Virus record (IMG/VR): IMGVR_UViG_3300027861_004723
Source: an uncultured virus (IMG/VR IMGVR_UViG_3300027861_004723)
Taxonomy: Duplodnaviria > Heunggongvirae > Uroviricota > Caudoviricetes
Strand: one strand, 5' to 3'
DNA length: 64,000 nucleotides
The notes beneath the pieces are model-generated. The model saw nothing but the letters and a program-made list of their open reading frames with translations. It had not been told where the DNA came from and searched no databases. Positions 1-63,925 of the stretch are shown piece after piece (the stretch's first letter is position 1; every line of letters begins with the position of its first letter). The translations under genes and the position numbers were made by a program.

Positions 1-2
1 AT

Positions 3-2555: not shown

Positions 2556-2683
2556 AGAGGTATTATCTCATAAAATGCTGATGTTTGAAACAGCAATTTT
2601 GCCTGGCTTCGTCTGCACGACTTGATTTTTAGATCTTTCAATGTAAAATAGCTATTTCCGTTGAAATTAATATCGAGGTATAG

Positions 2684-4324: not shown

Positions 4325-4351
4325 CGCTCCCCGTTGACAACTTAGTTACAC

Positions 4352-4768: not shown

Positions 4769-4776
4769 GAGTAAAA

Positions 4777-6117: not shown

Positions 6118-6518
6118 CAGAACACTATATTAATCCATTAACAGATTTTCGTCTACCTCTATCTGAGCTTAAGAAAGAAATAGAAGCTCTTATAGATAAA
6201 TATGGTGAAGATGCTATTATCTTTCCCGATGCTGGCTATAACAATGTCGAGATAGTTGTGATTACAGGATGATAGACGTTGATTGCGCCATGTGCCAGGA
6301 TACTGGCCGAATAGGTATGTGTTGGTGCAGTACAACCTATCCGCCGTGTTCTGGATGCACCGAACCTTTGCGACCAGATGACGAGTGGAGGATATGCATT
6401 GATTGCGATGATGAAAAAGAGAATAGATTCAAGGATGAATGCGACTGCCCTGATTTATTTTCTTTCGGCTGCCAAGACAAGGAAAACCATCGCTGACTAA
6501 CAAGGTATTAAGTGGCCC

Positions 6519-6893
6519 TTACCTAAAATAAACGTAAGCGCCTGCACCCAGTAATACTACTCCAGCAACCACGCCTAAATGCCAAGGCTTGAAAGCAGTG
6601 TCAGCAACATAGATAACATCTTCTTGCTTTCTTACTGCGTCTGCTGCTGTTCCCTGCCCTACGTTCTCTAGCCGCTGCGCTAATGCACTTTGATCAGCAG
6701 ATGCCTGCTCATCACGCCTTCTTGCCATGTCTTGTAAGTCTTGCTCAGTAGGCTGTGGTATTTGTGCTAGCTGGCAGGCTAATCCATTTCCTTGAGCACA
6801 CAACCCGGGAAGTTCTGCGTCACTTGCATTCATGGCGAGGCTGTCGGATTCGCTTGTTCTTGCACTGGTTTGTCCTAGATATGTATAACTCAT
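6519..6893 (-). CDS. Small protein with C-terminal transmembrane anchor
   Basis: WHLGVVAGVVLLGAGAYVYFR tail; TATACT 6 nt upstream of ATG. Confidence 0.7.
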   Translation of the reverse strand: MSYTYLGQTSARTSESDSLAMNASDAELPGLCAQGNGLACQLAQIPQPTEQDLQDMARRRDEQASADQSALAQRLENVGQGTAADAVRKQEDVIYVADTAFKPWHLGVVAGVVLLGAGAYVYFR

Positions 6894-6972
6894 ACATCAA
6901 GTATACTAAAAGGATTAAGGAAAATCCAAAGTGGCTGCTCTAGTTTTTAGATTATTTTGTTAAGATTACGGC

Positions 6973-7260
6973 ATGCCTGAAACTGCAAACAAACGCCTAG
7001 ATAAACTCGCCATTTGGTCACTACAAACCATCTTTGGTATCGGACTACTGGTTGCCAGTTGGTTCCTGGGAGGTCTCTACGAGCGTGTAGAAAAGGTGGA
7101 TACTAAAGTTAACACCAATGCCACCCAAGCACAGGTCAACAAAGAAAAGCTTGAGGGCCAGGCCGCATCAAATGGTAGGCAATGGCAAAAAATAAGCGAT
7201 TTGGAGTCCAGGGTTAGCCGATTAGAAGGCCAGATCAACGCGCTCAACCCAGGCAACTAA
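6973..7260 (+). CDS. Membrane protein, N-terminal TM helix plus coiled coil
   Basis: Hydrophobic helix at about aa 12-36, then heptads; TGTTAAGAT 6 nt upstream of ATG. Confidence 0.7.
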   Translation: MPETANKRLDKLAIWSLQTIFGIGLLVASWFLGGLYERVEKVDTKVNTNATQAQVNKEKLEGQAASNGRQWQKISDLESRVSRLEGQINALNPGN

Positions 7261-7265
7261 GTCTA

Positions 7266-8795: not shown

Positions 8796-8899
8796 AGTCA
8801 TAGTGTAGCATATTTCTAAAAACAGTCTATAAATGATTTAAGACGGCTCCTTGTTTAAAAAAGGATCATTGGTAAAGTAGACGAACCTAGGCGGTTACC

Positions 8900-10705: not shown

Positions 10706-11761
10706 ATGAGTATTTTCGTAGGATTTCCAAAAATCGGCCAGTTTCGCAATGTCGTTCAGGGCCTCACTATGCATGAGCGGTATGCTGGCCGAGATGAAAC
10801 CGGGGAGCCTATCTATGATAGTAATAGGCTACTTCCTAAGCTAGTTTTCAATGGTACTGTTAAGCTGCACGGCACTAATGCAGGGTTCGGGCTTTACAAC
10901 GATGAAGTCTGGTTCCAGAGCCGTACCAGCGTTATTACCCCCGTCAAGGATAACGCAGGCTTCGCTGCTGCTTTTTCCGGAGCAGATAAGCTCAGCTACA
11001 TCAAGCAGACACTTGAGGGCCTCAAGAACCAGCACAACGTAGATGATGACAAAGTCGTTGTCATGTTTGGTGAGTGGTGCGGAGGTTCTATCCAGAAGGG
11101 CGTAGCCCTTAACCAGCTTGATAAGCGTTTTGTGCTTTTCGGCATTCGAGTAGTTGGGCACGAGCGCAACGATGATGGCAACTATACCTACGATGAGTGG
11201 CTGCCAATTTCTGGAGTTAGTAACCACGAAATTGGATTCTACAATGTCGAAGACTACGAGCGCTATGAGTTGTCAGTAAATCTCAATGATCCAAAAGCAT
11301 CTCTTAATAGTATTGAAAATCTCGTTAAGGCTGTTGAGGCCGAGTGCCCTTTCAGCAAGGCTTTTGGTATCTCTGGTCTAGGAGAGGGCATTGTCTGGAC
11401 CACCCTACATAAGGGCACTCGATATGCCTTCAAGACCAAGGGCGAGAAACACGCTAATGTTCGTCAGAAGAAACCAGCTTCCGTTGACCCAGAAAAGGTC
11501 AACAATGTTGCTGAGTTTATCTCTTACTCTGTAACCGAAAATAGGCTTAATCAGGCGATTGAGCAGGTTTTTACTACTCAGAGCATTGAACCTTCCATTA
11601 AGGGAACCGGGCTATTTCTTAAGTGGCTTGTTAATGATATTGTCACCGAGGAGATTGATACTCTTTCTGCTAATGGTCTTTGCGCCAAGGATGTCAACGG
11701 TTCTATCTCCAAGGCAGCACGAACTTGGTTCTTTGAGTATCTCGACAAGCTGGTTTTCTAG
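10706..11761 (+). CDS. RNA ligase, Rnl2 family
   Basis: KLHGTN (motif I), FGEWCG (III), GEGIVW (IV), FKTK (V). Confidence 0.85.
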   Translation: MSIFVGFPKIGQFRNVVQGLTMHERYAGRDETGEPIYDSNRLLPKLVFNGTVKLHGTNAGFGLYNDEVWFQSRTSVITPVKDNAGFAAAFSGADKLSYIKQTLEGLKNQHNVDDDKVVVMFGEWCGGSIQKGVALNQLDKRFVLFGIRVVGHERNDDGNYTYDEWLPISGVSNHEIGFYNVEDYERYELSVNLNDPKASLNSIENLVKAVEAECPFSKAFGISGLGEGIVWTTLHKGTRYAFKTKGEKHANVRQKKPASVDPEKVNNVAEFISYSVTENRLNQAIEQVFTTQSIEPSIKGTGLFLKWLVNDIVTEEIDTLSANGLCAKDVNGSISKAARTWFFEYLDKLVF

Positions 11762-45799: not shown

Positions 45800-46276
45800 A
45801 TGCCAATAATGCCAGCAACCCGACACGTCTTTGCCAAGCACTCGCTCAATGACCACGTTTTTGGCAGCAAGAAGCCTCTTCGCCACCCATCGGTAATAAA
45901 AGAGCAGCGATATTTGCCGCCACCTGACGATGCTCCCTTTATCGAGCGGGTCTATGATCTGAACTCTGTTCTTAAAGCAGCTAATTACTTAGTTCGAGTT
46001 GAGGATCGGATGTTGCCAGTCGCCTTCTTTGCGGAACCTCGCTACGGTTTTACGACAATCATAGGTCTTTTGACTAAAGTTCGGAAATGGAAAAGCCAGG
46101 GATATACCCAAATCCGAATGATCCATAAACCAGATGCCAAAGTAAGCATTCATCAACCTTTTGGCAGATACTATGTTTGGGAATGGCGGCTGAAAACCCT
46201 TAAGGACATTGAGCCAATAAACCAAAGAGCCCCTGGAAATCTAGCTGGGGTTGATTATTGGTTTGGGAATAAGTAG
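45800..46276 (+). CDS. Hypothetical protein, leaderless
   Basis: TGCTATACT 6 nt before ATG. Confidence 0.7.
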   Translation: MPIMPATRHVFAKHSLNDHVFGSKKPLRHPSVIKEQRYLPPPDDAPFIERVYDLNSVLKAANYLVRVEDRMLPVAFFAEPRYGFTTIIGLLTKVRKWKSQGYTQIRMIHKPDAKVSIHQPFGRYYVWEWRLKTLKDIEPINQRAPGNLAGVDYWFGNK

Positions 46277-46589
46277 CAAAGATCAGCGTTGATCTTTGGG
46301 CTTTGATCTTTGTATACGCTGGTATTCGTGCCAAGATAGTAATTGATTTGCTAGGTCGGCTTGCTTGTGCCTGCTGCGCCTGGCGATCCCTAGCCCCCTG
46401 GCTGCCAACGCGGGTTTAGTATCGGATTAACTCCATAATCTTCTACCATACGTTGCCGGGTTTCGGGATAAAGAATCCAGGCAGCTATTCTGTTTGTTAG
46501 CGTGGGAATTGATCGTTTATTCATAAGCTCATGGTAACAAAGATCAAAGATCAGCGCCACTACAACATCTTTCGCGCACTTGTTAGCGC

Positions 46590-47630
46590 ACTGATACAAA
46601 CTTGCAACAAACTTGCAACAGCAACAGTAAGTTTTCAAAATTGCAACAGTTTGCAAAAGTTTGCAAAAAGTTGCTATAAGTTGTTTGTTTTCAACACCTT
46701 AGCGGTTACCACAAAGGGGATAGTCGGTGTAACCTACTGTCATATAAGGACTTATGACGAAACATATAATCTGCACCGGGGGGATGGGGGATGAGACGCC
46801 TGCGTCGGAAAAGCAGACTTATAGGACGCAACCGCTTGTAAACAGCTTACCAGAGCTTTGATACATGCTTAAAACGCTAAATGCACGTATACATGCACCT
46901 TTTAAGGCAAAAACGCGCTAAAAACAGCGTTACGTTGCACAAAGCTAGTAACTATGCTAATCAAAACTACGTTTCGGAATTGTGCGTGTTTGTTATCACG
47001 TTTGCTATAAAAACGCTTAAAAAGGGCCATTCTGGGCGTCGGTTTTCGGAGATGTTCGGGTTTTATTAGGTTTGGGGTAGGTTCGGGCGCTAGTTAGGGG
47101 TAAGTTAGGGTCTGGGCCTCGATGTTCGGGGTAGGTTAGGGTCCAGTGGCCCCCTACCAGTGGCCCCATATAAGGACTTAGGGCATAGTGGCCTAAACCA
47201 CTATCCCATATAGGGTTACGCTAAGGGTTGACCAGTGGTCTAGGCCATGATACCTTATAGGCAGTAGAGGACCGCTGGCCCCGTCCAGTGGCCCCTACCA
47301 GTGGCCCCAGGGGGGCGCTACCAGGGGGTCCAGTGGCCCCTACCAGTGGCCCCAGGAGGGCGCTAGGGGGTCCAGTGGCCTAAGCCTTTATCCCCCACCA
47401 CTTTACGCTAAGGGTTGCACTGGCCTAAACCCGTGGTATCTTATGGGTATTGGAGGGGTGTAGAGGCTTAGGCCAGTGCCCCCCAGGAGCCCAGGAGGGC
47501 GTGACACTGGCCCCAACCAGGGGCGTAGTATAGAGGGATAACCCCAGGAGCGGCCTAAGCGCCTATCCCAAGGCCCCTAAAGGACTTAGAGGAGCGGGGA
47601 GATAATCTCAACGCTAAGGGTTGTTTGAGC
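46590..47630. repeat. Non-coding repeat block (TTGCAA repeats, AAAACGC tracts, CCAGTGGCCCC repeats, ACGCTAAGGGTTG x3)
   Basis: No credible ORF; CCAGTGGCCCC(C)TACCAGTGGCCCC at about 47143, 47286 and 47330, plus single copies on both strands. Confidence 0.8.
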
Positions 47631-47684
47631 GGAAAAGCCGCTTACCCTATGGGCAGTGAAGAAGAACCACCAACGGAGAATTGA

Positions 47685-48008
47685 TTGAATATCAAAGCGT
47701 ATCTAACCGCCTTTCATAGCGAGGACGATAAGGGTCAAGTAAAGGTCCGCCCTATTCGGGTGCCTCAGACGATCTTAGCGGGCCTTGACAGCGAGGACAC
47801 CAACGCGCTGCTAAACGAGGCGTTCCGCTACGGGCAAAACGATTTCCAGCCTGTTGAGGGCTGCTACTCGCTCTCTGTGGGCGACGTGGTGGAGCTAGAC
47901 CCCGCTCGCCGCTATCGAGTCGCGTCGTTCGGATTTAAGCCGCTAGCGCCCTCTGACGATCCCGTGGCGCTAATCGGCTGGGACGCCCAGCAGGCTGGCC
48001 GGGGTTAG
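47685..48008 (+). CDS. YodL-like domain protein
   Basis: YSLSVGDVVEL....YRVASFGF; GGAG RBS. Confidence 0.55.
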   Translation: MNIKAYLTAFHSEDDKGQVKVRPIRVPQTILAGLDSEDTNALLNEAFRYGQNDFQPVEGCYSLSVGDVVELDPARRYRVASFGFKPLAPSDDPVALIGWDAQQAGRG

Positions 48009-48168
48009 TCCTTACGCTCTTTGCCCCCTATCCGTTTACCGGGTAGGGGGCTTAGGGCGATGCCCAGTAAAGGGTAGCACCGAAACGACTTAGAGATAAT
48101 CGGCGCTATCACTTGACTGGACAACGAGTCGGGTTTAAGATTGGCGACAGACGAGCAGGGAGGCTCTT

Positions 48169-49056
48169 ATGACGACTACGGCAGAAAAAGGCAAGACGCT
48201 AACAGCGTGCTGCCAGTGGGGGTTCTGGCAGGAGCCGGTGACGAACGCCGAGGGTCAATATACCGACCTTAGCGGCAAGGTCATCAAGAAGCCTATCATG
48301 CGGTGGGTTGAGGTGGGAACGCCCTGCAAGCCCTGTTTCGCCAAGGCTCAGGCCGAGCTAGACGACACCTGCGCCGATGGCCGGTGCAGCAAGGGCTTTT
48401 TCTGCGAGCAGCACGGCACGCAATACGACACGCCCCAGGAGTGGCCTACCACTAAGGCGGAGTACGAGGCCACTTTCGGCCAGCACCGTAACGTGCAGGT
48501 AGAGGGCGAGCGCAAGGTCGTTAGCGCCTATCACCGAAACCCGCTAACCGCTTTGACGGCTCTGGCGAAGCTGACCCAGCCCGCCCCCAAAGGCCGCAGC
48601 GTCAAAGAGTCGCTAACGGCGGTAAAGGCCGCTGTGGACCGGGTTTACACCCCGGAGGGGATCGACGCTATGGCTCGCCGCTGCCTCACCGAGCAGCAGA
48701 GCCAGGGACGCCACTGGCCCCTTTACGGGCAAGGGCTTTACGGGGATACCATTATTCTCGACAGCAACGCGGCGCTCTACCTCGCCCGCCTGGACGGAGA
48801 GGCCCCGGAGGTCGCCCAGGACGAGCCCCACGAGGACGAGCCCCAGGCCGCGACTCTGGTAGAGGAGGAGGACGACTACCCCGAGCCCGCCTACCAGGCT
48901 GACCCCGACGAGGGCCGTAGCGCCCTGGAGTGCGCCCTAGAGGCCGACTCCGAGGAGGAGGAGGCCGACGACGACGCGGACGCCTACGAGGCTCCCGCCG
49001 CCCAGGACGACGCCGACGACGCCGCCGCCCGCTGGCTCGCCCAGCACGAAGGATAG
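48169..49056 (+). CDS. Early protein with acidic C-terminus
   Basis: GGAGG RBS, own promoter, high GC. Confidence 0.75.
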   Translation: MTTTAEKGKTLTACCQWGFWQEPVTNAEGQYTDLSGKVIKKPIMRWVEVGTPCKPCFAKAQAELDDTCADGRCSKGFFCEQHGTQYDTPQEWPTTKAEYEATFGQHRNVQVEGERKVVSAYHRNPLTALTALAKLTQPAPKGRSVKESLTAVKAAVDRVYTPEGIDAMARRCLTEQQSQGRHWPLYGQGLYGDTIILDSNAALYLARLDGEAPEVAQDEPHEDEPQAATLVEEEDDYPEPAYQADPDEGRSALECALEADSEEEEADDDADAYEAPAAQDDADDAAARWLAQHEG

Positions 49057-49186
49057 GCCACTATCCCCCGCCCCGCTGCCCCCTACCAGCCCGACGCTGG
49101 TAGGGGGCTTAGGGCGATGCCCCTTATCTTGACAGGGATTGGTCGGCAGGCGATAATACCCACTAACCCAGCAAAAGGAGCCAAAC

Positions 49187-49471
49187 GTGGCAAAGACAAA
49201 GAATAAGCCTAAGAAGGCGAAGAAGTCACAAAAGGTCGAAGATACGGCTGAAGGCGCTTTTGTCCTAGAGTGGCTTGAAGAAGCCTGCGACGAATCAAAG
49301 GCCCTTAACGCTATTTTTAGCGACTCCTCGAAAAAGACATTGCGGACGTTTATCGCCGCGATGTGCGAACTCTGCGATGATTACGCAGAGGCCCTCTACG
49401 ACGACGAGGGCGACGACGAGGAGGACTACAGCGACGACGACGAGGACGACGACGAGGACGACGAGGACTAG
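49187..49471 (+). CDS. Small protein with basic N-terminus and very acidic D/E tail
   Basis: AAGGAG RBS; promoter at 49129. Confidence 0.75.
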   Translation: MAKTKNKPKKAKKSQKVEDTAEGAFVLEWLEEACDESKALNAIFSDSSKKTLRTFIAAMCELCDDYAEALYDDEGDDEEDYSDDDEDDDEDDED

Positions 49472-49498
49472 CCAACCGGCCAGACCCGAGCCCCAGAG

Positions 49499-49532
49499 AG
49501 GCCCTTACCGCTTTTAGTGGTAAGGGCCTTTT
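49499..49532 (+). terminator. Intrinsic terminator
   Basis: AGGCCCTTACCGCT / AGTGGTAAGGGCCT followed by a T-run. Confidence 0.75.
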
Positions 49533-50768
49533 CTGCATCTTTACCGCTTTATTTATTCTTGCGCTATGTATTGACTGGCTAAGAAGCCGCATGGTATGAT
49601 GCCAGGTTCGGTTTAGTGCGTTCCCAGATATGGGCTCAGAGGTCAAAGATCAGCGCACCAGATATGGGAAATGAGACGCAAATGAGCCAGTGGCCTTTTG
49701 TGACACGAACCGTTAGGGCCTACCCTAACTCTACCCTAACGGTGAATGTCTGACGCCAGATAACGGCTACCTAGAGGGGTGATGCTGGCCTTTTGTGGGT
49801 AGGGCCGTAGGAGCTTACCCAGTGGCCTATGAAACGAACCCCCATACGGTAGTATGGAGAGCCGATAAAAGCCGTTAGAGACGCCCCCAGTAGCTCTAAG
49901 AGTGTCAAGAACAAAAGCGGTTATCTCACGGAGTTTTCTTTCTTTTTTATTGGCTACGCTATGGGTTGACTGGACCCGGATAGTGCCTTAGCCTATGGGC
50001 AGTGGAAAGCAACTAGGAGGGCTTAAAATGTACGGAGGCAATTTCATGGGGCGGCTCGTGCCGTGCTCAATGTGTGGAAAAGCGGAAAGCGCGACAGACG
50101 CTAGCCCCTTTTGCGGAGCCTGTAACGAGGCTTATTACGCCGAGCAAGAGGAAGGCCGTAAGGCCGTAAAGGACACCCGCCAGTGCCGTTGCGAGGACTG
50201 CGAGGCACCGGGTCACTGCCGCAACTGTGGCGGCTGCGTCTACGAGATGAGCACCACAAGCGGATTGTGCGATAGCTGCTATCTTGGCGCGGGGTAAAGG
50301 TTTAAGGGCCTGGCAAGAAAATGCTTTTGCATATCTTGCCAGGAACCCTTACCCCGATTAAGATAGGGGCATAACCACCCAGGAGCGAACCTTGACCTTA
50401 GACGACGCCCACGAGATTGTTGAGCAATTAGATGCCAACAACGTCAACTCGACGATTTACTACGGCTATCAAGGCCGTGGCATGGACAACGCCACCACGG
50501 GCGTCGTTACCCGCAACGCGGACGACGCAATAGACGCTATGACCCAGCGAGGGATTATCTGGTCTTTCCGCCAGGACGCTATGGGGCTCGACACAATAAT
50601 CTACTAGGTCACTTGACAGTAATTCCTACCCGGTGTAGGATACGGCATAACGAAAACACGAGTCCTTCCTTCCTCTCGCCTGTTTGAAGCCCGCTATCGC
50701 TTGTTGCGATAGCGGGCTTAGGGTGATGCCGGGAGACTGGCACTAAACCACCAAACAAAGGCAATCCC

Positions 50769-51128
50769 TTGACCAACTTGCAGAGAATCCTAAACTTTCT
50801 CGCTGGGAACCCCCAGCCCCAGAGCGCCGCGAACATCGCTCGTGCCATGACGATCAAGGTCGGCACCGTCCGCGCCAACCTCAAGCGAGCGCGGGAGGCC
50901 GGAACGGTCCAGGCCAGCAAGCAGGGCAACGCCCAGCACTGGACCCTGGCGACGGTCCACGTCAACAAGGGGCGCACCACTCGTGCCCTGATCGTCTTGC
51001 TGCGCGAGCGCCAGGCCAAGCACCGAGAGGCCCTGGCGACCGGCTGGAGCCGCCGCGAGCGCCAGCAGGCCCGCCGAGGGGTCAAGCGCACCACGCGCCG
51101 CCTGGCGACCTTGGAGGCCCGCGTTTAG
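50769..51128 (+). CDS. Winged-helix DNA-binding protein
   Basis: RILNFL...SAANIARAM.IKVGTVRANLKR.REAG.V pattern. Confidence 0.65.
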   Translation: MTNLQRILNFLAGNPQPQSAANIARAMTIKVGTVRANLKRAREAGTVQASKQGNAQHWTLATVHVNKGRTTRALIVLLRERQAKHREALATGWSRRERQQARRGVKRTTRRLATLEARV

Positions 51129-51435
51129 CGGGTTACCCGCTCTTTCCCCCTAACCCCCTATCCGCCAGTCGGGTAGGGGGTTTAGGGCGATGCCGCCCAG
51201 GCGCAGTAAACCGCTAAAAAGCGACGGTAGCTGCAAAGGGAGCTAACTTTTAATGTTCGACGCCTCCTACCCGTTTAGCGGGTAGGGGGCTTAGAGCGAT
51301 GAGGCTGCTAAACACAGCAACATACACTAAGAAAGTTTCTTTTGTATGTATCGACAGGAATCGCAGAGAACCGTAGAATACAAACCGTCGAGCAGCAAGC
51401 ACGACAACGAACCCACCCGCTAGGAGTAGCAAACA

Positions 51436-52092
51436 ATGAGCATCGCTGACAAATTGAAGGCCCCAGAGGCTCCCGAAGCCGCCACCGCAACCGCCAGCAC
51501 GCCCGAGCCTGCCGTCGAGCCGAAGGCCAGCGCCAAGCCCCGGAAGCCCCGGAAGCCGCGCAAGCCCAAGAACACGATCACCGAGGCCGACGCGACGGCT
51601 TTCGCCGCCATGTTCAGCCCGGAGGAGATCCGCGCCAAGCTGTCCAGCCAGCACGTTGCCGCTCTCGGAACGTCGAGCTTCGAGAAGATCGTCGCTGGCC
51701 TTGTGGAACTGGGCCAGGCGTCCGAGAAGGAAGCCAAGGGGATCGAGTCCGTCCGCGTCTACCGCGACGGTCGCATTAAGACGAGCGGCGCTCGCAAGCA
51801 GCGTGCCAAGCGCACCCTGGGTGCCCGCCTTGGCGGCGACGAGGGTAGCGCCGAGCCCGAGGGTGAGGGTGAGGTCTTGCAGGCCGCGCTTGTCGCGCTC
51901 TACAGCAGCGAGGGCGGGCCGAAGCAGGCCGCAATCGTGGCGGCTCTCGCCAAGACGCGCCAGGGCGTCGAGTGCAGCCAGGCGACCGTCTCCAACTGGC
52001 TCCGAGGCGCGATCCCGAGCGCCCGCTTCCACAAGCGGCTCCGCAAGGTCTTGGAAAAGGCCGGGTTCCTCGAAACCGAGGCTAGCGACTAA
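51436..52092 (+). CDS. Protein with C-terminal XRE-like HTH
   Basis: QAAIVAAL...SQATVSNWLRG..P; AGGAG RBS. Confidence 0.6.
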   Translation: MSIADKLKAPEAPEAATATASTPEPAVEPKASAKPRKPRKPRKPKNTITEADATAFAAMFSPEEIRAKLSSQHVAALGTSSFEKIVAGLVELGQASEKEAKGIESVRVYRDGRIKTSGARKQRAKRTLGARLGGDEGSAEPEGEGEVLQAALVALYSSEGGPKQAAIVAALAKTRQGVECSQATVSNWLRGAIPSARFHKRLRKVLEKAGFLETEASD

Positions 52093-52304
52093 ACACTCCT
52101 GGCTCCGACCCCCCGCCCCTAACCCCTTGGTGGTTCTGGGCGAAAGGGGCGGGGGTGTTGGCCCTTTAGCCTTTGACGCTTTAAGCCCGTAGCTGGTAAA
52201 ACAGCACGGGCTTAGAGCGATGCTAGCGAATAAAGAAAAACATTCGCTATATGTAGACAGCAGCATCCTGCCCATGTTACCTTATGGGCAGTAGAGGGAA
52301 CCCA

Positions 52305-55300
52305 ATGGCCGCTCGCGCAAAGAAGCCCACAAAACCCGCCCGCCTTTACTCGCTAGACGAGATTCGCGCTACGCGGGTTTTCCAAAAGCTGCAAGAGGCT
52401 TTGCCGAATCTGCGAGAGCACGAGGCTATGCGCCTCGCCCGTAACGAGATTCAGGTAGCCTGGGACGATACCCAGAGGGCCAAGGTTAATAGGGCCTGCG
52501 AGGCTTTCAGGGCCAAGCTAGCCTCTTTGGGGATCGAAGGCAAGAGCGTTACCTTAGTGCTGGTAACCGACAAGCACGGTAACGGCTATTACGACGTTAC
52601 CAGCCAGCCAGGCGGGCGCAAGCACGCAGAGTCGGAGACGCTGCCCAAGGGCTCGTTCAAGGTTACCCGTAGCACAGGATAGCCTTTAGCGCAAGCTAAA
52701 AGAAAAAGTCCTGCATCTCTGGACAGTAACCGCAAGCTGCGGTAAGATGTAAGCATAACAGCAAGGAAGGAACCACCATGCGAATCAACCACGAAACAAT
52801 CAGCAGTGAGGCCGTGCGCCAGCGGGGCGGTAAGTATACCACCCGCAAGTATGGACTCAAGCTGTCGGTTAGTGTTATGCTGGGCGAGGAGCACGAGTAC
52901 TGCACCCGCTGCCAGGATCAGAGCCGCACCAGCTTCCAGATGAGCGGAGCCGCCGAGGATTTACCGTTTAGCGCCAAAACGCACAGGAACGGTATTAGCC
53001 TCTGGACCAAGGGGTACCAGGAAAAGTGCGAGACGTGCGGCTGGGATAGCGTAGTCCAGGCAGTCACCTTTCGCTTTTGGCTCCCCAGCGACCGTCCGAG
53101 CGAGACGTTCAGCGAGAGCCAGGCCATGAAGATGATCGCAAAGCGATCACCAGAAAACGCCGAGCGTGGCTATAGCCACGAGCAAGAGCGGCCTTTGGCT
53201 TTAGAGGCTATCTTGGAGGGGCGTATCTTGGCACAATTCGCCGCGCTCGACAAAGACATCATTCGCGCTAACGCGGCGCGTCAGGCGTGCCGTTTGGCGA
53301 GCCACTACGCCGCCGACGCCCGAAAGCAAGCAAAGGAAAGCTGCAACTGGGAATCTCGCCTAGCGGCTTTGTGCGCGGAGGTTGAGGCCGAACAGCAGCG
53401 CGTCCTAGCGAGCGAGCTAGAGGGCCTGCAAGCCGCCTGCGACAAGCACGAGGAGGAGTGGCACCCAGAGGCCATTCGACTCGCTACGGAGCGTGCAGCG
53501 AGCCTCCTACGCTCTGCCATGCCCTCTGGCTTCCCTCGCGGCCTGGGCCGGGAGGAGCCGGTTAAGGCAGAGGAGGTGCGCCTACCGGGTGACCCCGAGC
53601 CCTCCGACGAGGACGAGGCCGACAGCACCGACGAGTAGCGGCTAAAGTTTAGTGGGGTAGTTAGTTTTCTTACTGCCCCGCTAAACCGCTCCCCAGAAAA
53701 GAAAAAACAAAACCAGTCGCTATACCTAGACAGTAACATGCCCTGCATGTTACCTTATGGGCAGTGAAAGGAATCACCACTATGGCTTGGAAGCACCACG
53801 ACGAGATGACGGTCGAAGAAGCCCGTCAAGAGATGCACCACCTTGAGGGCTACTTTGCCTCTTGCGCGGAGATCGGGCAAGGCATTAACACTAAGGAGAG
53901 CGTGCGCCACCGGGGCTGCAAGGCTATGGTGACTCTGCACGACGAGCTAGGTGTCAAGCCGTCGTCCTACCAGAGCCTAGAGGGTGGCGTGCTAGGGTTC
54001 ACGCTGTGGGGATACGACCCCGACAACGGGCAGGGCGCAGCCGAGGCCGCAATTAACGGCTAACACTAACTTGCTAAACTTGCCAAAACAAAACAAACAA
54101 AGAGGAAAAAGAAAACATGAGTAAGGCACGTAAGAAGCACGTCAACAGCAGCGACCCGCGTAAGCTCTCTATCAAGGCAGCGTTGCTCCGAAAGGCAGGG
54201 CGGGGCACCAAGGTAACCCTCGTGACCGAGGATTGTGTCGAAAACACTTTCACGGGGCACGTTATGGCAAAGCAGCCTGGTCGCCGTAACTGGGATTCCC
54301 TGGGTAATATCACTGTTACCAGTGCAGAGGTGGGATTCCCTGGGTAATATCACTGTTACCAGTGCAGAGGTGGCTACAAATAGCGCCGTGCCGCTTAGTT
54401 AGCGGCTAGTTGGGGTGGCGATATTCCCAATGATTGAAGCAGCCTAACCGCTGTAACAAAAGCCCCGAATCTCGGAGAGATTGGCGCGGTTAGCGTCATT
54501 AGCTTACACCGCTGGAGTGCTAATTATTTAGCGCAGCGATAGCAGGAAAGCACTAGCAAGAAAAAGCCTCTATCACACCCGGCGCGGCTGGGATAGTGAT
54601 AGGGGCTTTTTCGCTTTTCCCTTGACAACTTTTTTCGCTTTTCCCCCTTGACAAAAAAGCTGCATCACGGATATTTAGCGTTTTAGCAGCTTTTCTTTTT
54701 TCGGCAGCTATTACGGTATCTATTGACTGGTCGCAGGCGGGCGTGTTACCATACAAGATGAACAAGATGGCGCTGATCTTTGTGCGTTGATCTTTGAGCC
54801 TATATCTTGACAGCAACAAAGCGCCGTGCTAGAATACCAGATTCGCCGTAAAAAAGATCAAAGAACAAAGATCAACGCTATCTATTGACTGGAACAAACG
54901 CGCCGTGCTATGATGCCAGATGGCAAAGAGTGAAGATCGAAGATCAAAGATCAGCGCAAAGAGGCTACATCTATTGACTGTAAGTGATTACTTGTTTATG
55001 CTGTAAGCATAACAACAGGGGGCACAGATGGCACGTCGCGTTGCTAAGAAGCGGGTAACTAAGAAAAAGGTAGCCAAGAAAACCGGGGCCGGAACCAGCC
55101 TGTTCCCCAGTCGTATTACGATTGAGTGGCCTGATGGCACAAAAGAGGTACTGGCTTTCTCGTGTCCGCGCTTTAGTGCTAAGGGCAATATGAACGCGCA
55201 CGCAGGGGACAAACTGCACCGCAATGGCAACATCTTGCGTGTCAACTGCAACGTAACACAAAGCCGGGGATAACCGGCTGCATCTATTGACTGTAAGCAG

Positions 55301-58300
55301 CTATCTGCTAAGATGCAGCAATGAGCAAGCCAAACCCCTACAACGCGCTACCGGCTGATTTTGACGCTAATTGCGCTAGCGCCTGGGCCTCGCTAATATC
55401 TTACGCAAAGCCGGGTGACCGTTATTGCGCCTATTGCGGCGAGGATCTAACTAGCGATACCATTGGACCTAATGGTGACGCACAGTGTCTTGCTTGCTTT
55501 GAGCAGCAAGCACTAAACGATATTGCAGGAGGTAAAACCACCGATGGGTATCGTAACTTAGAGTTTTTCCTTAGCGACATCTCTTGCCTGTAGATGGCTA
55601 CCAGGCTAAGATGCAAACTCGATACAGGGGGGACCAATGATCGACAAACGAACAATTCCAGCCGCCGACATTAAGGCTGCACTAGACGCAGCTATCGCGG
55701 TACTGGCTATGACTAGCCGCGAGCACGCCGAGGAAATTGGCGGTTACATCCGCCAGGCGTTTCGCCCTAACCCGGAGCTAGTGCCCATTGGCGTGGCTGT
55801 TATGTTCCACCAGGGCGCGGCGGAATTGACCCAAAAGATGCTCAAGGTTCACTACCCAGACAATTATGGCTGGTAACTTGGTCGCGTCCGAGCTACGGAA
55901 ATTGCCCGGTGTTGATGCGGTTTTCGGGGACGGGGGACAATATGGCTCGTAAGCGCGGTAAAATGCACTGTCGGTTTTGTGGTGACTCAGCTACCACCGA
56001 CCCAGATACGTGGGAGCCAACAGGGCTTTGTACAGCGCACGCAGAGCCCGCTAACAAGGCGATACGCAAGGCGCGTAGGGCAGTCCGTCGCTCCGAGCGT
56101 GAGGAGGTTGTGGTAGACCAAAAGCCGCTACAGCCTAACGGCCCTTACCGCACTATCAAAACCTACAGAGGTGAGGTTGTGGTAAATGATGCGGGTGAGC
56201 CAGTTTAGCGTTAAAACGCTAATAAGAAATCTTCCTGCATCTATTGTCAGGAATCTCGGATTCGCTACAATGAAAAGCGTAAGCACAACGAGGAAGAACC
56301 ACCTTGACTATGACCGAACAACACCTATGCACGAGCTTCACCCGTCGCCACAAAGGCAAGGGTCGCCCGCAACGTGACGCCGTTTGTGGCGTCTGTGACG
56401 CGACCTACAGTGAGCACCACCCCAAGGGTGAGGCGCTGCCCGCCCTCGCAAAGTGGGTTCGCCCCGCTGAGTGCGGACACTTTACCAAAACCGATAAGAA
56501 GCGCGGAAAGCCCTCCCCTAGCAGCTTTTGTGCTGTCTGCGAGGTTGTCTGGACAGATCACTCCCCGCGTGGTAGTGAGTCCCTCGTGCTCCACCCCGAC
56601 GCTATCCGCCCGCAGGAATTGGCGCTATCTCCTAAAGTGGGTAGCAGGCTTCCCCAGCCCGCCGCTAAGGCTCCTACGGTCGCCCGTAAGCTGACCAAGG
56701 TGGCGACGGACACGCCCGCTCCTGTGGAGCCTGTAGTGCTCGCTGTAGAGCCTGTGGTGGAGCCTGTCGAAGCCCCTGAGCCGCCCGCAGAGGCTTTCGA
56801 GGAGCCCACGGAGGAGCCCCGCGAGCCTGGCCGTTTCCTGGCCTGGATGGACGCGCAGCACGAGGAGGACATTAGCGCCTATATGGCGCAGGGTCTAACC
56901 CGCGAACAGGCCGAAGCCAAAGTCGAAGATGATAACGACTGGTAAGCAGTAAACGGCGCTAAGGTGAAACTTAACAGGCGAAAAAAAGCCGACCTTAGTG
57001 CGCGTTTACTTTCTTCACAAAGATGGGCTATACCTAGACAGGAACATGCGCTGCATGTTACCTTATGGGCAGTGAGAGGGCGTGGAAGATGAGCAATAGA
57101 ACTTGCCAGCAACCCAACGGCTGCGAAGGCGTTAGCAGGCTCGACGCCTGGGAGCTAGAAGCCCCCGCGCTTTGTATCCTTTGTCAAACGGTGTTGTGCG
57201 ATGTTTGTGCCGCATGGCTAGACAATATCCCTACCAATAAAATCCCTATCAAACGGTTCCGAGAAAACAAGCGTCCCGAGCATGATACGTGCAGCGGCGT
57301 TCTGTGTAGCAATTGTTTTGTTGAGGATTGGGTGTAGCAGCATCCCTAGACAAGCGCCAGGCACTAAGTTAAGATAATCACAACAGAGTAGGGAACTATG
57401 CAAGCTATCAGAAACCGCAGTATCACAATCTTGGACGAGGCTGTTGGCGAGCCCCGCGAGGGCCGCGAGGGGCGAGAGGCCGAGCAAGACCGGCTGGTAG
57501 CCAGCGTGTCTTACTGCAAGGGTCGCGGCTACACCTTGCGTGCAAGGGTTGAGGTCGCGGAGGAAAGCGGCGGTACCGGCTGGCGCAGATTCGCGCTAAT
57601 GACCGGAATCGGCTACACGGAACACGTCCTTAGTGCCTCTCGCTATAGCGCAAAGAAGCTAACTACTCTTTCCGCCACTATCAAAGCTGATACCAGCTTG
57701 GTAGAAAAGCTAGCACCACTAAAGGTCGAGTTGGCCCGCCGCCTGGCCGCTGGAGAAAGTTACTAAAGCAGCCTACGTCTATTGACTGTAACAGGCTACC
57801 CGGTATAATTCAAGCATGAACCACACCGACGAAAACAGCATTGACACCGTGCCCACTACCATTGAGGGCACCGAGCACAGCCAGAGTTGTGGCGCTCGCT
57901 GGAACCCTTACACTCGCCGTTACGTTCTCGACGACGAGGGCAACGAGTGGAATAGGTGTAGTGCTGGAAACAGCTTTTACCCTCTTTCTCACGCGCACTG
58001 GGCGCGGGATATGTCGGCAGCGGGTGTTGGTCACCTGTACCACGAGGTTTACTACCAAGACGGTGTTCGCACGCTTGGTAAGCGCCCTAACGTCTTACAC
58101 GAGATTGCTCAAGGGCTCAACGCCTATGAGGCTGGTCGCAACACCTACGGCAACGGTCGCCTGTTCTGGGGCGTGTTCCAGGGACAGCTTTTCTTCCGTT
58201 CGGAAAAGAAATAATGACAAAGCCTGAGCCCATCGGCCCTTTGCCGCACAGTGTTAGTGGTATTGCTGTTTCCGCTTATGAGCATTACGCCTATGTCAGC

Positions 58301-61300
58301 GGCGCGGTGTTCGTCAACGGCAAGCTGCCTACTGGCGTCTGGGTAAACCCTAATCACTGGGGCCACCCGGAGATCGAGATTGGCTTTAGCGATCCTGGGG
58401 AGGAAGCAGCTTTCCTTAGCCTCCTAAAAGGCGAGAACATCCCGTTTAGGAAAACCGGCTGCATCTATTGACAGTAGCCGCTTGCTGGAGTAAACTCTAA
58501 CCAGTTATCCAGAGCGGTGAACCGTGACAGACGCAGAGCAAATAGCTAAAGTCCGCGCAAAGCGAGATCCCGTATTTGCCACTATGATGCGGAGAATAGC
58601 AGGCCGCACAAGTAACCCAGCTTTTACGAAAGAAGCTACAATTCGCCACTACTCGCAAGCTGCTGGTGTTCCGGTAAGCCGTAAAAGCGTCCGCAACGTC
58701 GTTTTGTTCCTATCAGAGATAGGCGTTTGTGAGTTTGTACAAAACCCAGAGCAACGTATTTCTGGTATTAGCTGGCGAGTAGACGCAATCAACTTTAGTC
58801 GTAAAGTGATAGGGCTTCAATGGAGCCCGTCCGACGACGAGATACGCGCTTTTATGGAAGGGCTGTAATGGACACTAAGATTCGCCAGCTAGAGCGTCAG
58901 GCGGCTACAGGAAGCCGAGAGGCCCACCAAGCCTTGCTCTGCACTAAGCAGCGCGTAGGGCGGCGCAGATTGCTTGGTATGAGCCTTAGCTTTTGTATTA
59001 AGAGTGTTTTGCAGGGCGACGTGCAGCCTAACGAGATTTTTGGTATCATCTCTAATACTCACGGCTTTGTTTTGACGCGCCCGTGGGCTCCCGGTAGATA
59101 CCACAGCTATATTGCCTATAGCCACAAAGGCACAAACTACCAAACCATCTTTGATCGCTATATGGAAACATACTGGCGTAATTGGAGCCGGGAACAAGTC
59201 GAACAAGTTTGTTCAGAACTGTTACAACGAATATCAGAGCGCAAGCACGGATTACCAGATTCGTGGATCGACGCTGATAGTCCTTACGAGTGGGGCCAAG
59301 TCCCACAGGGCAGCGGTGAGGGCATGGTAGGCACCTACATCAATCCTGCTAACAACGAAATCCTGCAAACCCCTAATGAGATTAGGGTATACACAGAACG
59401 TAGATAGTCTGCTGCATCCCTTGACAGTAACCAGCTACCCGGTTACGATGCAAGAGTAACAACGGAGGGCGATCATGGCTGCAAAAACCAATGTTCAGAC
59501 CAATTTGCTTGGCAAGCGTGTAAACCTTAGCGCGGAAAACACGCAAGCGGCTATCCGCTATGCGGACGCCTGCCCCGAGACGGATCTGCCCTGGCTCAAG
59601 CTGCACCCCGAGGGCGGCGAGGTCGTAGCGGTGTTCACTGACCGGGATGGTGAATTGAACATTACCGCAAGCACTCAGGCTGGCGATCTGGTCACCTTGC
59701 CTGTTGGCTGGCTCAAGCTGTCCCCCAGAAAAAGCGGCTTGTAGACCGCTATCTCTGGACAGCAACAAACCTCTAGGATACAATCCACGTAATGCAAGAC
59801 AACGAAGACAACACGCCGCTCCACGCCCGCCAGCTAAACGCAAGCTGCTACGGCAGCAAGAGCGACCCCGACGCGCCTGGTGACTATATCGAGTACACCG
59901 GCTACAGTGTGCCCGTGACTGGCCCCCTGCCCTCCAGGGAAATCTGCGACCGCTTTAACGCGGAAAAGGGCGAGGACAACTGGAAGGAGCATATTTACTC
60001 CTGGCGCGATTATGTCAAGTACAATCTTCTCCAAGATGGGACTGTCTTTCTGGACTCTGGCCGGGGCTCAGAGGAGAAGGATAGGGTTATCGAAGATCCT
60101 ACCACTATCGCGCTAATTCACGCGATGCGCGACGAGGATACGGAGATTGCCCGCGCTCGTATCTGCCTTGCAGACGACGTTGCGAACGCCCGCTACAATG
60201 GCGACCAGAACGCCTTTATCGCGCTACGTGCCGCTATCTCTTACTGCCCTGGCGATCCTACGTCTTTCTCAAAAGACGGAATTGATTTTTACAGCGTGGG
60301 CCGTAACGCCTCGCACAGCTTCTACATGGGGCTCCGCAAGAACGACGACGGCACTATCAGCCTGTTCAGCGGAGCGGACGCCTACGACGACCCTTTTAGC
60401 TACCGCGAGAAGGAAACTTGGGCTGGTGGCTATTACGGTCACCACTAATTCCCTAATACCGAAAAGAGGTAGTAATGGCGAAGATTGATATGGCAATGGT
60501 TGTTTTCTCAGTAACCTTGCGGAATGTAGAGGTTCCTGACGACGCCGAGCCCTGGCAACAGCGCGAGATTCTGATCGGACTGGCGGGGTCAGCCCAAAGA
60601 GCCTCCGAGGCCGTAATTCACGATTGCTCTAACAGCGAACTGATTGATTAGGAAACAGCAGCGTCTATTGACAGCAAGCAGCTACCCGGTTATGATGCGA
60701 AGAACAAGCGAGCGGGAGCAGCATGACTACTTTGAATAACTGGTCATTCCAGACTACGGGCGTTTACTGTCCCCCTGAGTGTTCTAACATTGTGCTTAAT
60801 GGGGAAACCCAGGGACACCCCAGATACCCAGATGGTTCGCGTATTCAGACGACGCCAATAGCACTAACCCCGCAAGGGTTTACCTCCTTTTCGGGCAGGG
60901 AGTGGACTCTTGGCACTCCGAGCAGCGAAACGACGCTAGAGGGCTTTACAGAACAGTTTATCAGTATTGTCGAAGGGCTAGCAGCCAACGGCAGGAGCCT
61001 GGCTGACCCGCGAAACCCGCACTGTTAGCATCTATTGACAGTAACCGGCTACCCGGTTATGATGCGAAGAACAACACCGACAAAGGGGTCCGACTTGGAC
61101 GACGACGCATACGCTAAATACGGCGAATACGACGAAGATTACGAGGATCTTTTCAATTACCCGGACGTTTGGGAGATTTAAGTGGCTAACCGAGAAATCA
61201 CGTTGCCGGTGTTTGGCATTGTTGTCACTCTGATTCCCGGTCCTGGCGGCATCCTGATCCACTCTGGGGGCAGCATTTCCTCCGATCTGGAGGAAGAATG

Positions 61301-63925
61301 TGAGTGCGGACAAATGGATAGGGGCTATTGCTCTGACTGCGGTTACAACGACGCCATGCTGGGTATCGAAGCCCTCATCCTGGGCCACGCTTGCGCCGGT
61401 ATAGACATTACGACGCTGGCCTATATTGAGGGAATTGAGTCAGCGGTTCAAGGCGCAGCGAATAACCGCTAGAAGCCTGCATCACTAGACAGTAACCAGC
61501 TACCATGCTACCTTATGGGCAGTGAGGGAGACAACATGCCACATCACAAACGCGGCGCTTACGACCGTTTCGACTCTTTCGCAGAGGTGCTCGCTTACTA
61601 CAAGCGTTGCCGAAAGCGCAAGGCATTTATCCTCTCCGAAGCTGGGGTGGAGCTAGAGCAAGAGGCGGTCTGCAAGGGGTGTGGTAAGCACCTTAGCGTC
61701 GTCGTGTCGGAAACCCCCGGTTATCACGGTAACCGTTGTGACTTTTACCCGAGAAGCAAGAAGATTGTGGTAAAGCACTATACGTGCGCCTGGGGAGCTA
61801 CCCTGTCTGCTATTTCCCGCATGGGTTGACAGTATCTCCTGTAAAGGATAGAATCCGCACTGGAAACCCAGGCTTAGTAAAGCCGGAACAGTAGAAAAGA
61901 TGAAAACTTACTATTGCACTGATATTGAGTGGGATACTGACGGGCTTCCCGCTGATCTACCAACCGAGACGATGGTAAGAATTGACGAAAGCAGCGAATA
62001 CGTTGCTGACGCGCTTTCCGACGAATACGGGTTTTGTATCTTTGCACTATGTATCACTCTTTTGTGCGACAGATGCGAGCAGGAAACTCGTAACAGTGAT
62101 CTGGACAATAACGGGCTTTGTCCCGATTGTTGCCCCGATCCCGCTCGTGATGATCCCGAGTTTGACGAGGAATAAATGAGTGAATATAGTTGCGAGTGCG
62201 ACCGCTGCCTAAAAGGCTGGGGATGTCAAAACCTAGCAGAAGGCTATCAGTGTAAGCATTGCGGGGAAACTCCGACCTACCAAGAGCTTGATAACGGTTC
62301 ATGCAGCGGATGTAGTTAGCCGCTATATCTGGACAGAAAAGTGACGGCGTGCTAAGATCAAAGATCAGCGCGATTTTCAGCTAACAAGGCTGCTAACAAG
62401 GCTGCTAACAAGGCTGATAACAACAACGAGGACGGTAATTTGCAAAACGACAATATCAGAATTGTATCACCCGGTAATATGGGTGAGGGTTACACGGTAT
62501 CACACTGGTCCATTAAGATCAATTACGATCCCGTGTTAATTGGTAATTTTGATACACCCGAAGCAGCCGTTGCTTGGGCGGGCGAGTGGCTTGTTTACAA
62601 CCCGCAGATCAAACTGGTAGTGCCCACTATTAGCGTTGATACTGCACAGAGAGCTATTGCTTACGCTATGAAAAAGAAAGACGATGCGGAGTTCTAGCTT
62701 ATCTTGACAGTAACCAGCTACCCGATTACAATGCAACCTAACTCAACGAGGGGGAATTATGGCTGACAGCGACATCACGGGTCTACCGGAAGCAGAGCCA
62801 GAGCGCGTTGTTCATAACTTTGAACTGGACGGGCTGGAGGTTTCCCTTTACCGAGGCTCAGACGGAAAATTGATAGTGGACATTGATTCCGAGGGGCTAG
62901 AGGAGGCAGACGCGCATCCCAGCACGATGGTCCCTAACATTCGCATCTGGGTCAACGAGCAAAAGATTGAGTTTGCCGCTGACGGAGAGCTACTAGAGAG
63001 TTAGCATCCATTGACAGTAACCGGCTACCCGGTTAAGATGCAATCTCAACAGGGAAACGATCATGGCTGACACCGACGACATTACGGGCTTGGACTGGCC
63101 GGGGGTTCCCGCAACAGTCGAAGATTTCACGATCATTACGCCTGTTAAGATCGAAAAGCAGCGCGTCTGGGATCTTCTCTGCAACATCATGGAAGGCGGG
63201 AGCTACAACAGTTTTATCATTGTTGAGTATCTCCCCGAGGGGATCGAGAATCACCCCGACTGCACTTACCGGCATATCGACGTGCCGTTCCTGGGCGGCT
63301 CCATTGGCCTGATTGACAAGTATGGGGATAGCCCTATTGTTTATCAGCTTGACCGTGCAGCTATGGAGCGTGGTCTAAAGATCATGGCTAACAAGTTTCC
63401 GCGCCACTTTGCGGATTTCCTAGATCAAGGCGACGACGTTATCACGGCTGACGTGTTCCTGCAATGCTCGCTTTTGGGCGACGTTATCTACGGCTAGCCC
63501 TTGACAGGAATGTAGCAGAAAAGCTACAATTAGTAAAACAAAGGCTGGGGGTTCCTTCCCCCTCCTCCTTCCGGGAGCCTCCAGCCACCTACAACGCGCT
63601 GATCTTTGGGCTCTGAGCCCCGCGCAACTTAACAAAATCCAAAATCTCTGACAGGAGACGACCAGCCGCCCGTAATAGGGGCAACAAGGGAACGGAACGA
63701 ACAATGGGTAAACGTGCAAAGCGCCGCAAGGCAAAAGCCAAAGCCAAACTAGGCTTTGTTCCAGTATTGCTGGAACAGTCGAACGGACGCAAGCGTGGCG
63801 CACAAGGGCTTGGCCTGGGCGCTCATCAGGATACCAGTCCGATGGCCCGAGCTACCCTTACACCCGATAGGCGGGAAATCCAGCGTCGTAAAGACCGCAA
63901 GGCCAAGCAACAGGGCTGGGGATAA
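52305..63925 (+). CDS. About 25 small early hypothetical genes (e.g. 52778, 54117, 55028, 55321, 55637, 56304, 57398, 57816, 58214, 58524, 58868, 59475, 59792, 60723, 61182, 61900, 62440, 62759, 63063, 63704)
   Basis: All on the + strand; most directly behind one of the repeated promoters with RBS or leaderless starts. Confidence 0.7.
54291..54373 (+). repeat. Perfect 40-bp tandem duplication
   Basis: TGGGATTCCCTGGGTAATATCACTGTTACCAGTGCAGAGG twice, followed by TGG. Confidence 0.95.
54560..54612. terminator. Bidirectional intrinsic terminator
   Basis: GAAAAAGCCTCTATCAC / GTGATAGGGGCTTTTTC. Confidence 0.7.
62380..62423 (+). repeat. 12-bp tandem repeat, three copies plus a partial copy
   Basis: GCTAACAAGGCT x3, then GATAACAA, in a 5' leader. 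Confidence 0.9.
63537..63590 (+). ncRNA. Candidate small RNA hairpin with CCUCCUCC loop
   Basis: Own promoter 63501-63530, no ORF, 13-bp stem with two G-U pairs. Confidence 0.4.

Follow-up and report, generated by a model that had tools for sequence, protein, structure and literature searches.

A covarying hairpin with an invariant 3′ tail recurs between the early genes of an uncultured marine phage and resembles the early RNase III sites of T7

Introduction

The systems closest to the one described here come from the early regions of T7 and of T4-type phages. In T7, R0.5 and R1.1 have been described as efficient insulating processing sites (PMC3643576). Substrates of the Escherichia coli enzyme RNase III typically comprise two helical turns; internal loops limit cleavage to one strand, and the resulting 3′ hairpin shields the product from exonucleases (PMC1540722). 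In the PeSL cassettes of T4-type phages, a GC stem-loop is joined to a sigma70 early promoter; the cassettes behave as terminators or attenuators in a reporter and have been connected with module shuffling (PMC2839356, PMC4122927). The early regions of uncultured phages are rich in orphan genes, and the organisation of their expression is little understood. Here we analyse a stretch of 64,000 nucleotides (hereafter the window) from an uncultured virus of the Caudoviricetes (IMG/VR IMGVR_UViG_3300027861_004723), in which six copies of a GC-rich hairpin followed by the tail TTAGRGYGATG (UUAGRGYGAUG in a transcript) stand between small early genes. Hairpin and tail together are referred to as the hairpin-tail element, and the copies as c1 to c6.

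Six hairpins share one tail

The pattern TTAGRGYGATG has six exact matches in the window, all on the + strand, with tails starting at 48052, 49109, 50718, 51182, 51291 and 52212 and the last one ending at 52222. By chance 0.12 matches are expected (sd 0.36) and none of 100 shuffles reached six, which confirms the count given in a first-pass annotation made from the letters alone. Allowing up to one mismatch added two sites, 38977 and 40067, both in the low-GC part of the window and neither scored as an element by the covariance model described below. Directly 5′ of every exact tail stands a GC-rich hairpin of 10–14 bp with a loop of 5–6 nt, and all six loops are distinct from one another. The first-pass annotation had given the same loop lengths, but stems of 12–14 bp throughout; this is true of five copies and not of c6, whose stem is 6+4 bp with a bulge. 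Its further description, of sites that lack a U-tract, carry a fixed 11-nt tail, are intergenic and are confined to the early region, was borne out: in all six copies the stem is followed by TT only, at the head of the tail, and all six lie between called open reading frames (ORFs), point in the same direction as the genes and fall within about 4.2 kb. Homology between copies extends over about 45 nt at the gene borders.

The first copy, c1 (48015..48062), lies 14 nt after the stop of ORF 47685-48008 and consists of the flank CGCTCT (48015-48020), a 12-bp hairpin (48023-48051; loop TTTAC, one U·G pair) and the tail TTAGGGCGATG (48052-48062); it scores 69.4 bits in the covariance model, and a sigma70-like promoter starts at 48113. 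Placed 21 nt after the stop of ORF 48169-49056, c2 (49070..49119; 56.1 bits) joins the tail TTAGGGCGATG to a 13-bp hairpin (loop CCGAC, 49078-49108), and a strong promoter, TTGACA-17-GATAAT, follows, with its −35 box starting at 49129, 10 nt past the tail. The third copy, c3 (50681..50728; 64.4 bits, folding z = −4.87), sits in a leader, after the promoter 50613-50641 and 40 nt before the winged-helix gene 50769-51128; its 12-bp hairpin (50689-50717, loop TTGTT) grows to 14 bp if AA/TT is included (50687-50719), and its tail is TTAGGGTGATG. The same gene is followed after 24 nt by c4 (51145..51192; 63.9 bits), with a 12-bp hairpin (51153-51181; loop CCAGT, one U·G pair, outer pair A-U), the tail TTAGGGCGATG and a flank, CCCTAA, that is complementary to TTAGGG of the tail and pairs with it. 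The start of c5 (51254..51301; 63.7 bits) is 109 nt downstream of that of c4; a 12-bp hairpin (51262-51290; loop TTTAG, one U·G pair) and the tail TTAGAGCGATG are followed by a promoter at 51351. The last copy, c6 (52177..52222; 54.5 bits), comes 92 nt after the stop of ORF 51436-52092, beyond another GC hairpin (about 52113-52155), and has a stem with one bulged A (52185-52211, loop GTAAAA), the tail TTAGAGCGATG and a flank, CGCTTTAA, which pairs with the tail without a break to give 18 stacked pairs. All of these lie on the + strand. Promoters begin 10–50 nt past c1, c2 and c5 according to a promoter scan and past c6 according to a repeat family, and each copy is 40–243 nt upstream of a + strand gene.

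Between c4 and c5 there is also a 10-codon mini-ORF (51240-51285, MFDASYPFSG) with a good ribosome-binding site, which stops at a TAG within the 3′ arm of c5; it could be a chance occurrence or a leader peptide.

The stems covary on the + strand

When the six copies were aligned, 94.3% of the 70 cells formed standard pairs, the non-pairing cells being register shifts of c2 and c6, and six of the 12 stem pairs showed compensatory changes on both sides. Neither figure was reached in any of 500 shuffles, and in a control where the partner was slid by 1–3 columns pairing fell to 38–56%. The arms do change together, as had been claimed from inspection. Three U·G wobbles, in c1 and c4 at one pair and in c5 at another, pair on the + strand only. 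This agrees with the strand specificity noted earlier, but because these wobbles represent only two independent events the argument is suggestive rather than strong, and weaker than was implied.

A covariance model was built from the six copies and run with filters off on the window and on three other contigs (L019, L030 and L031, introduced below). The six copies score 54.5–69.4 bits, their reverse-strand images 16–31 bits, and the next + strand match is an ordinary terminator hairpin at 22.3 bits, matched in its hairpin part only. No seventh copy was found by the model across the whole 64-kb window, and beyond an incomplete copy in L019 it matched nothing further in the four sequences. A comparison with Rfam, proposed alongside the first-pass annotation, returned no match in the window at the gathering score. 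The hairpin is under selection as a + strand structure.

A design shared with the early RNase III sites of T7

T7 positions 1–8200 were retrieved, and 70-nt segments were folded around the presumed positions of five early sites (R0.3, R0.5, R1, R1.1 and R1.3). Like the window elements, the folded T7 sites have a GC-rich, covarying upper stem with G·U pairs and no U-tract, of 9–10 bp in T7 and 12–14 bp here. A short 3′ tail follows directly after the T7 stem (UAUGAU in three of the five), and a lower stem is formed with the 5′ flank across an internal loop in all five; the total helix amounts to about two turns in both systems. Both kinds of site are found between or just upstream of small early genes read by the host polymerase. 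According to the feature table, the T7 promoters B, C, phi1.1A/B and phi1.3 adjoin the sites on the upstream or downstream side, comparable with c3 and c2, and the order promoter, element, gene at c3 matches the T7 promoter arrangement. The two systems differ in that the lower stems are shorter here, invariance of the tail is stricter and the 5′ flank lacks conservation, whereas a CUCAAGG-type 5′ side is kept in T7; moreover, most genes near the elements have a promoter of their own, unlike those of T7. The resemblance is one of design, not of descent.

The lower helix was characterised by folding the six elements with the upper stem enforced, with flanks swapped for random 20-mers of the same region as a control. 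In these constrained folds AGRGYG of the tail pairs with a 5′ flank of CGCYCT type across a small internal loop (CGCTCT, CGCCC, TCGCCT, CCCTA and GTTC, besides the unbroken pairing in c6), so that the total helix including this pairing reaches about 18–22 rungs in all six copies. The summed flank energy is −64.7 kcal/mol, as against −45.8 (sd 6.9) for random flanks (control fraction 0.005); among single copies only c6 (−15.2, fraction 0.008) and c1 (0.066) stand out. The tail varies at two positions, in both cases by transitions with pairing kept: at position 5, c5 and c6 have an A that faces U and the remaining four copies a G that faces C or U, and position 7 is C or U opposite G in five copies and is unpaired in c4.

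Because geometry and placement match the early RNase III sites of T7, processing is the best of the functions offered in the first-pass annotation, and we give a probability of roughly 40% to the reading that the elements are intercistronic RNA processing and 3′-end protection signals of the T7 RNase III type. Host RNA polymerase would start at the many sigma70-type promoters and read rightward, and each element would fold in the transcript into a very stable upper hairpin, below which the 3′ tail UUAGRGYG and the 5′ flank would pair across the small internal loop to give an interrupted helix of about two turns. We infer that a double-strand-specific endonuclease, most likely host RNase III, would make its cut on the 3′ side of the upper stem, at the base or close to it. 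Cleavage would leave the upstream message with a protective hairpin at its end and the downstream message with the fixed leader UUAGRGYGAUG at its start. The outcome would be that neighbouring early genes are insulated from each other in stability and translation, as at T7 R0.3–R1.3.

Several points weigh against processing by RNase III. The lower stems are short, at 4–8 pairs, and the flanks of c3, c4 and c5 are singly no better than random ones (fractions 0.27, 0.27 and 0.56). That the 3′ side is invariant while the 5′ flank varies suggests that sequence is recognised along with shape, something for which RNase III alone does not account. The T7 site positions are absent from the RefSeq feature table and are those which we take to be the published ones, and the covariance model gave no hit in T7 1–8200 at E ≤ 1, hence no sequence homology. 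Most genes here own a promoter, and so the cutting of a polycistronic message is less needed than in T7. Finally, the stems are almost all G-C, and cutting or binding by E. coli RNase III is described as being inhibited by G-C pairs adjoining the scissile bond and by some pairs of the proximal and distal boxes (PMC1540722); the enzyme of the phage's host may differ. Processing and the other roles considered below (attenuation, docking, shuffling and promoter activity) are not mutually exclusive.

The hairpin-tail can be searched for as a marker of early-gene borders in this marine phage group, and is a candidate for a portable part that insulates or processes. It further offers a test case for whether T7-style message punctuation is widespread beyond T7-like phages.

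Termination and attenuation

Intrinsic terminators likewise place a stable GC-rich hairpin soon after a stop codon. A classical terminator was nevertheless rejected: the U-tract is missing from six of six copies, none of the six was recovered in the terminator scan, and c3 and the copy in the distant relative L019 need read-through. An intrinsic-terminator-like hairpin with a T-rich tail does occur in the series, on the + strand at 49499..49543 (AGGCCCTTACC...GGTAAGGGCCT TTTCTGCATCTTT), where it follows ORF 49187-49471 and fills the same kind of slot as the hairpin-tail elements. U-tract signals therefore exist in this region, and the hairpin-tail is something else.

A possible explanation, although we place it on the unlikely side, is that the elements are transcription attenuators or insulators, in which the stable hairpin, possibly aided by a tail-reading helper, would stop or slow the host polymerase, so that expression of an early gene would depend chiefly on that gene's own promoter, the role proposed for PeSL stem-loops. 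The placement suits this well, as c1, c2 and c4 begin 14–24 nt past a stop codon, c5 and c6 follow in the same gaps, four copies (c1, c2, c5 and c6) have a sigma70-like promoter 10–50 nt downstream, and one gene of the series carries the ordinary terminator at 49499 in the equivalent slot. Over 46–64 kb, U-tract terminators are not enriched (23 vs 21.2 expected) and sigma70-type promoters are (35 vs 9.0 expected, 30 of the 35 on the + strand), and GC-rich PeSL stem-loops are reported to cut lacZ expression as strongly as rrnB T1 (PMC2839356). Against attenuation stand the lack of a U-tract, the silencing of downstream genes that an efficient stop at c3 or at the L019 copy would cause, and the invariance of 11 nt past the stem across distant phages, which it leaves unexplained.

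The likeness to PeSL cassettes is itself partial. Both have GC-rich stem-loops, with no U-tract stated for the PeSLs, and strong sigma70-type promoters between small orphan early genes. The PeSL stem-loop usually lies within or overlaps the promoter and is described without an invariant tail, whereas the hairpin-tail is a separate unit, 10–50 nt off the promoter or downstream of it (PMC2839356, PMC4122927). The conserved block here is hairpin plus tail only, with promoters after c1, c2, c5 and c6 and before c3. A second repeat family of the window (52.7–63 kb) is closer to the PeSL layout than the hairpin-tail is.

The tail in a distant relative

Metagenome contigs scanned for 3′ arm plus tail gave 14 loci, of which two are real: L016, from the same phage, and L019. 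The remaining 12 have no hairpin and are chance matches. L019 is a contig of 1,686 nt that opens inside the hairpin (..CTACAGC ttgtt GCTGTAGGGGGC) and continues into an exact tail; the covariance model scores this incomplete copy at 20.8 bits. Its loop is the same as that of c3, its stem CTACAGC is closest to the c2 stem CTACCAGC, and the surrounding genes are unrelated. Besides the element, L019 shares with the window only the winged-helix protein, at 36% identity over 55 aa, the sole protein match found. Since the tail is identical to the letter while the stem differs and the proteins are remote, the tail has been kept across a large distance. Conservation of the tail elsewhere had been named at the first pass as one of the points on which its reading would turn, and L019 provides it. 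With this copy included, 9 of the 11 tail positions are invariant in seven of seven copies, while stem, loop and 5′ flank vary; a 5′ arm free to change opposite a fixed 3′ arm implies that the tail sequence itself is also read by something.

A gap of 8 nt separates the end of the L019 tail from the GTG codon at which a zinc-ribbon gene starts, and the ribosome-binding site of this gene overlaps the end of the tail. This leaves no room for a promoter between tail and gene, and the element must therefore be read through. Because read-through is needed both here and at c3, processing fits better than termination.

The fixed tail has also to be weighed as a binding site. It is quite unlikely, in our estimate, that the element is a docking site for a phage early or host protein that reads the tail, in single- or double-stranded form, beside the hairpin, on RNA or DNA; such a factor could shut off, stabilise or time early expression, by an oriented "stoperator"-like or an RNA-operator mechanism. 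The invariance of the tail amid a variable stem, loop and 5′ flank speaks for docking, and c3 lies in the leader of the winged-helix gene, whose protein has an arginine-rich C-terminus. The corresponding leader in L019 (1390-1415), homologous to the c3 leader, keeps a tail-like CTTAGGGTATGAT without a GC hairpin, which hints at a tail acting alone, although the match to the tail is imperfect and may be no more than a remnant. No fixed distance separates the tail from a promoter or a start codon (40–243 nt), and a DNA roadblock at the tail would be expected to stall polymerase before the 3′ arm is transcribed, leaving the hairpin without a role. We regard as unlikely, too, a combined scheme in which UUAGRGYGAUG would be the address of a dedicated factor (e.g. 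the winged-helix protein or a nuclease), read only when presented by the hairpin. On this view the elements would amount to a new signal, dependent on that factor, which forms RNA ends or shuts off expression in a clade of marine phages, at sites that could double as cassette-exchange borders. If a specific factor does read the tail, factor and tail would form a new RNA–protein recognition pair.

Other searches were directed at further relatives. In viral contigs the pattern GGGGCTTAGRGYGATG gave 15 loci, none with a hairpin, and a gapped pattern gave two loci, on two of the same contigs, that are chance matches; the contigs of species-representative genomes gave one locus without a hairpin. 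The pattern scans of viral, metagenome and genome collections thus yielded no copies outside this phage group. Two contigs with relatives of one L019 protein, L030 and L031, were set aside, as they have nothing else in common with the window and their hairpins carry other tails. At the protein level, the 295-aa early protein and the 218-aa early protein of ORF 51436-52092 have no relatives in viral contigs, the winged-helix protein matched only itself among 5.8 billion proteins in a word index and nothing in phage records, the helicase and an 817-aa protein have no relatives in phage records, and the NADAR/NUDIX protein gave domain-level matches only. A 6-kb DNA search against phage records returned one 54-nt chance match only, and atlas look-ups of two large uncharacterised proteins gave no lead.

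Recombination, promoter and antiterminator alternatives

The L019 copy is nearest to c2 despite unrelated neighbours, as would be expected if cassettes are exchanged at the element. This raises the improbable alternative that the element is a junction for module shuffling (a short homology or recombination hot spot at cassette borders) or a REP/MITE-like selfish hairpin, with any effect on RNA being secondary. The restriction of inter-copy homology to the gene borders agrees with this, as does the presence in the same region of about 15 promoter units that each enclose a 7-bp hairpin, a layout like that of PeSL cassettes as described (PMC2839356, PMC4122927). On the other hand, the compensatory changes reflect long-term selection for pairing and not recent copying, the identical block between copies measures only about 15–17 nt, and the pattern scans gave no copies beyond this phage group. 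Among the 95 window ORFs, the Pfam scan returned no integrase, transposase or Y1/RAYT family. X4, X5, X8 and X10, four chosen from the 15 runs that carry the stretch, showed neither differing letters at a share of at least 10% nor a rearranged form, and so supplied no population covariation.

The first-pass annotation had also suggested a recombination site for gene cassettes. Integron attC sites do resemble the elements in being strand-specific imperfect hairpins at the 3′ end of a cassette, with a conserved 3′ box starting in TT. The window tail reads (C/T)TTAGRG, however, which misfits GTTRRRY; the stems are perfect and without extrahelical bases, the cassettes have their own promoters, and no integrase family turned up among the 95 scanned ORFs of the window. 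The integron kind of recombination site is therefore not supported.

Each copy lies upstream of a + strand gene, and the L019 copy would yield a leader of about 20 nt with a ribosome-binding site if transcription started in its tail. It is nonetheless very improbable that the element is an N4-like hairpin promoter, with its start in the tail and used by an RNA polymerase that the phage encodes or injects. TTA/GGGCGA of the tail may resemble a T7-type start region. N4 hairpin promoters, which serve a virion RNA polymerase, have a stem of 5–7 bp and a 3-nt loop, compared with stems of 10–14 bp and loops of 5–6 nt here; the wobble pairs speak for the non-template strand, sigma70-type promoters already saturate the region, and no RNA polymerase family was detected among the 95 ORFs of the 64-kb window, which covers part of the genome.

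The lambda nut site likewise places a hairpin with a 5-nt loop in early transcripts, and a boxA-like CGCTCTTT precedes c1 and c4. The boxA-like sequence is thus found before two of six copies only, the loops are unconserved, and the conserved part of the window elements is 3′ of the hairpin, unlike in nut; the antiterminator proposed at the first pass is not supported on these grounds. From the range of structured-RNA functions suggested there, what stands is a + strand signal that is not an ordinary terminator and in which the tail matters, given the covariation, the wobbles, the orientation along the genes, the missing U-tract and the tail of L019; antitermination of the lambda nut kind and cassette recombination of the integron kind are not supported.

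Four further candidates were also discarded. Short ORFs starting from the ATG of the tail are not conserved, which speaks against a Shine–Dalgarno sequence plus start codon; c3 and c6 have no G-runs for a G-quadruplex; the window holds no complement of the tail at up to one mismatch that could serve as an antisense partner; and no fixed −10 box of a promoter is aligned past the tail.

Genomic context and further observations

The source is an uncultured marine phage without a close relative among phage records. The stretch is carried by 15 seawater or marine metagenome runs from nine studies, none of the 15 being RNA. Its GC content is about 44% over 1–46 kb and 59–61% over 48–54 kb, with the shift at about 47 kb, and the early region looks compositionally foreign against the rest of the phage; L019 also has 58% GC. 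The small + strand early genes include two with acidic tails, one zinc ribbon, one winged-helix and one second helix-turn-helix protein. Genes of the low-GC part specify a helicase, an asparagine synthase, a CCA-adding-type nucleotidyltransferase, an RNA ligase and a NADAR/NUDIX protein. The nucleotidyltransferase, which has an HD domain, and the RNA ligase (7266-8801 and 10706-11761) look like an RNA repair pair. A tRNA scan of the window was blank, and the Pfam scan of the 95 ORFs detected no RNase III family.

The winged-helix protein encoded by 50769-51128 (119 aa) matches MarR_2, HTH_24 and Sigma70_r4_2 of Pfam, all under the curated cut-offs. Two early proteins, from ORFs 48169-49056 (295 aa, with a Cys-rich N-terminal half) and 49187-49471 (94 aa), end in long Asp/Glu-rich C-terminal tails, and no family match was found for either. 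Asp/Glu-rich tails occur in DNA-mimic or host-takeover proteins.

Upstream of the six elements, a non-coding, repeat-rich stretch at 46.3–47.65 kb ends in three tandem promoter-like units on the + strand, at 47221, 47408 and 47614 (47221..47667; CTAAGGGTTG... N17 ... TAYCYTATGGGYAKT), which head the rightward early region. This stretch (46260-47660) contains AAAGATCA(AAGATCAGCGC) words, decamers of the TTGCAA type and, repeated 2.3 times, a 45-nt unit (GTCCAGTGGCCCCTACCAGTGGCCCC...). It may serve as a control region or an origin, or be an end of the genome.

Other repeats are spread through the early region. The promoter units with the embedded 7-bp hairpin (50327-63047) measure about 45 nt and read CTGCATCtaTTGACAGTAACCrGCTACCCGGTTAyGATGCAA. 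A second promoter-like family is found at 47245-47270, 47431-47456, 52228-52300, 53701-53773, 57009-57081 and 61503-61528; its core, TATGGGCAGT, occurs six times, always on the + strand, and the full-length copies (52228, 53701 and 57009) comprise TAGACAG, an inverted repeat of the AACATGC/GCATGTT type, TACCTT and the start region ATGGGCAGTG. Another word, AAGATCAAAGATCAGCGC, is found directly or as its inverse about ten times, often by promoters (46263-46557, 49630-49656, 54770-54957, 62345-62371 and 63596-63622), and is a candidate regulator-binding site. A perfect 40-nt tandem repeat of 2.1 copies is present at 54291-54373. The longest contigs over the stretch measure 114,425 and 114,431 nt (runs X4 and X8), which hints at a genome of about 114 kb.

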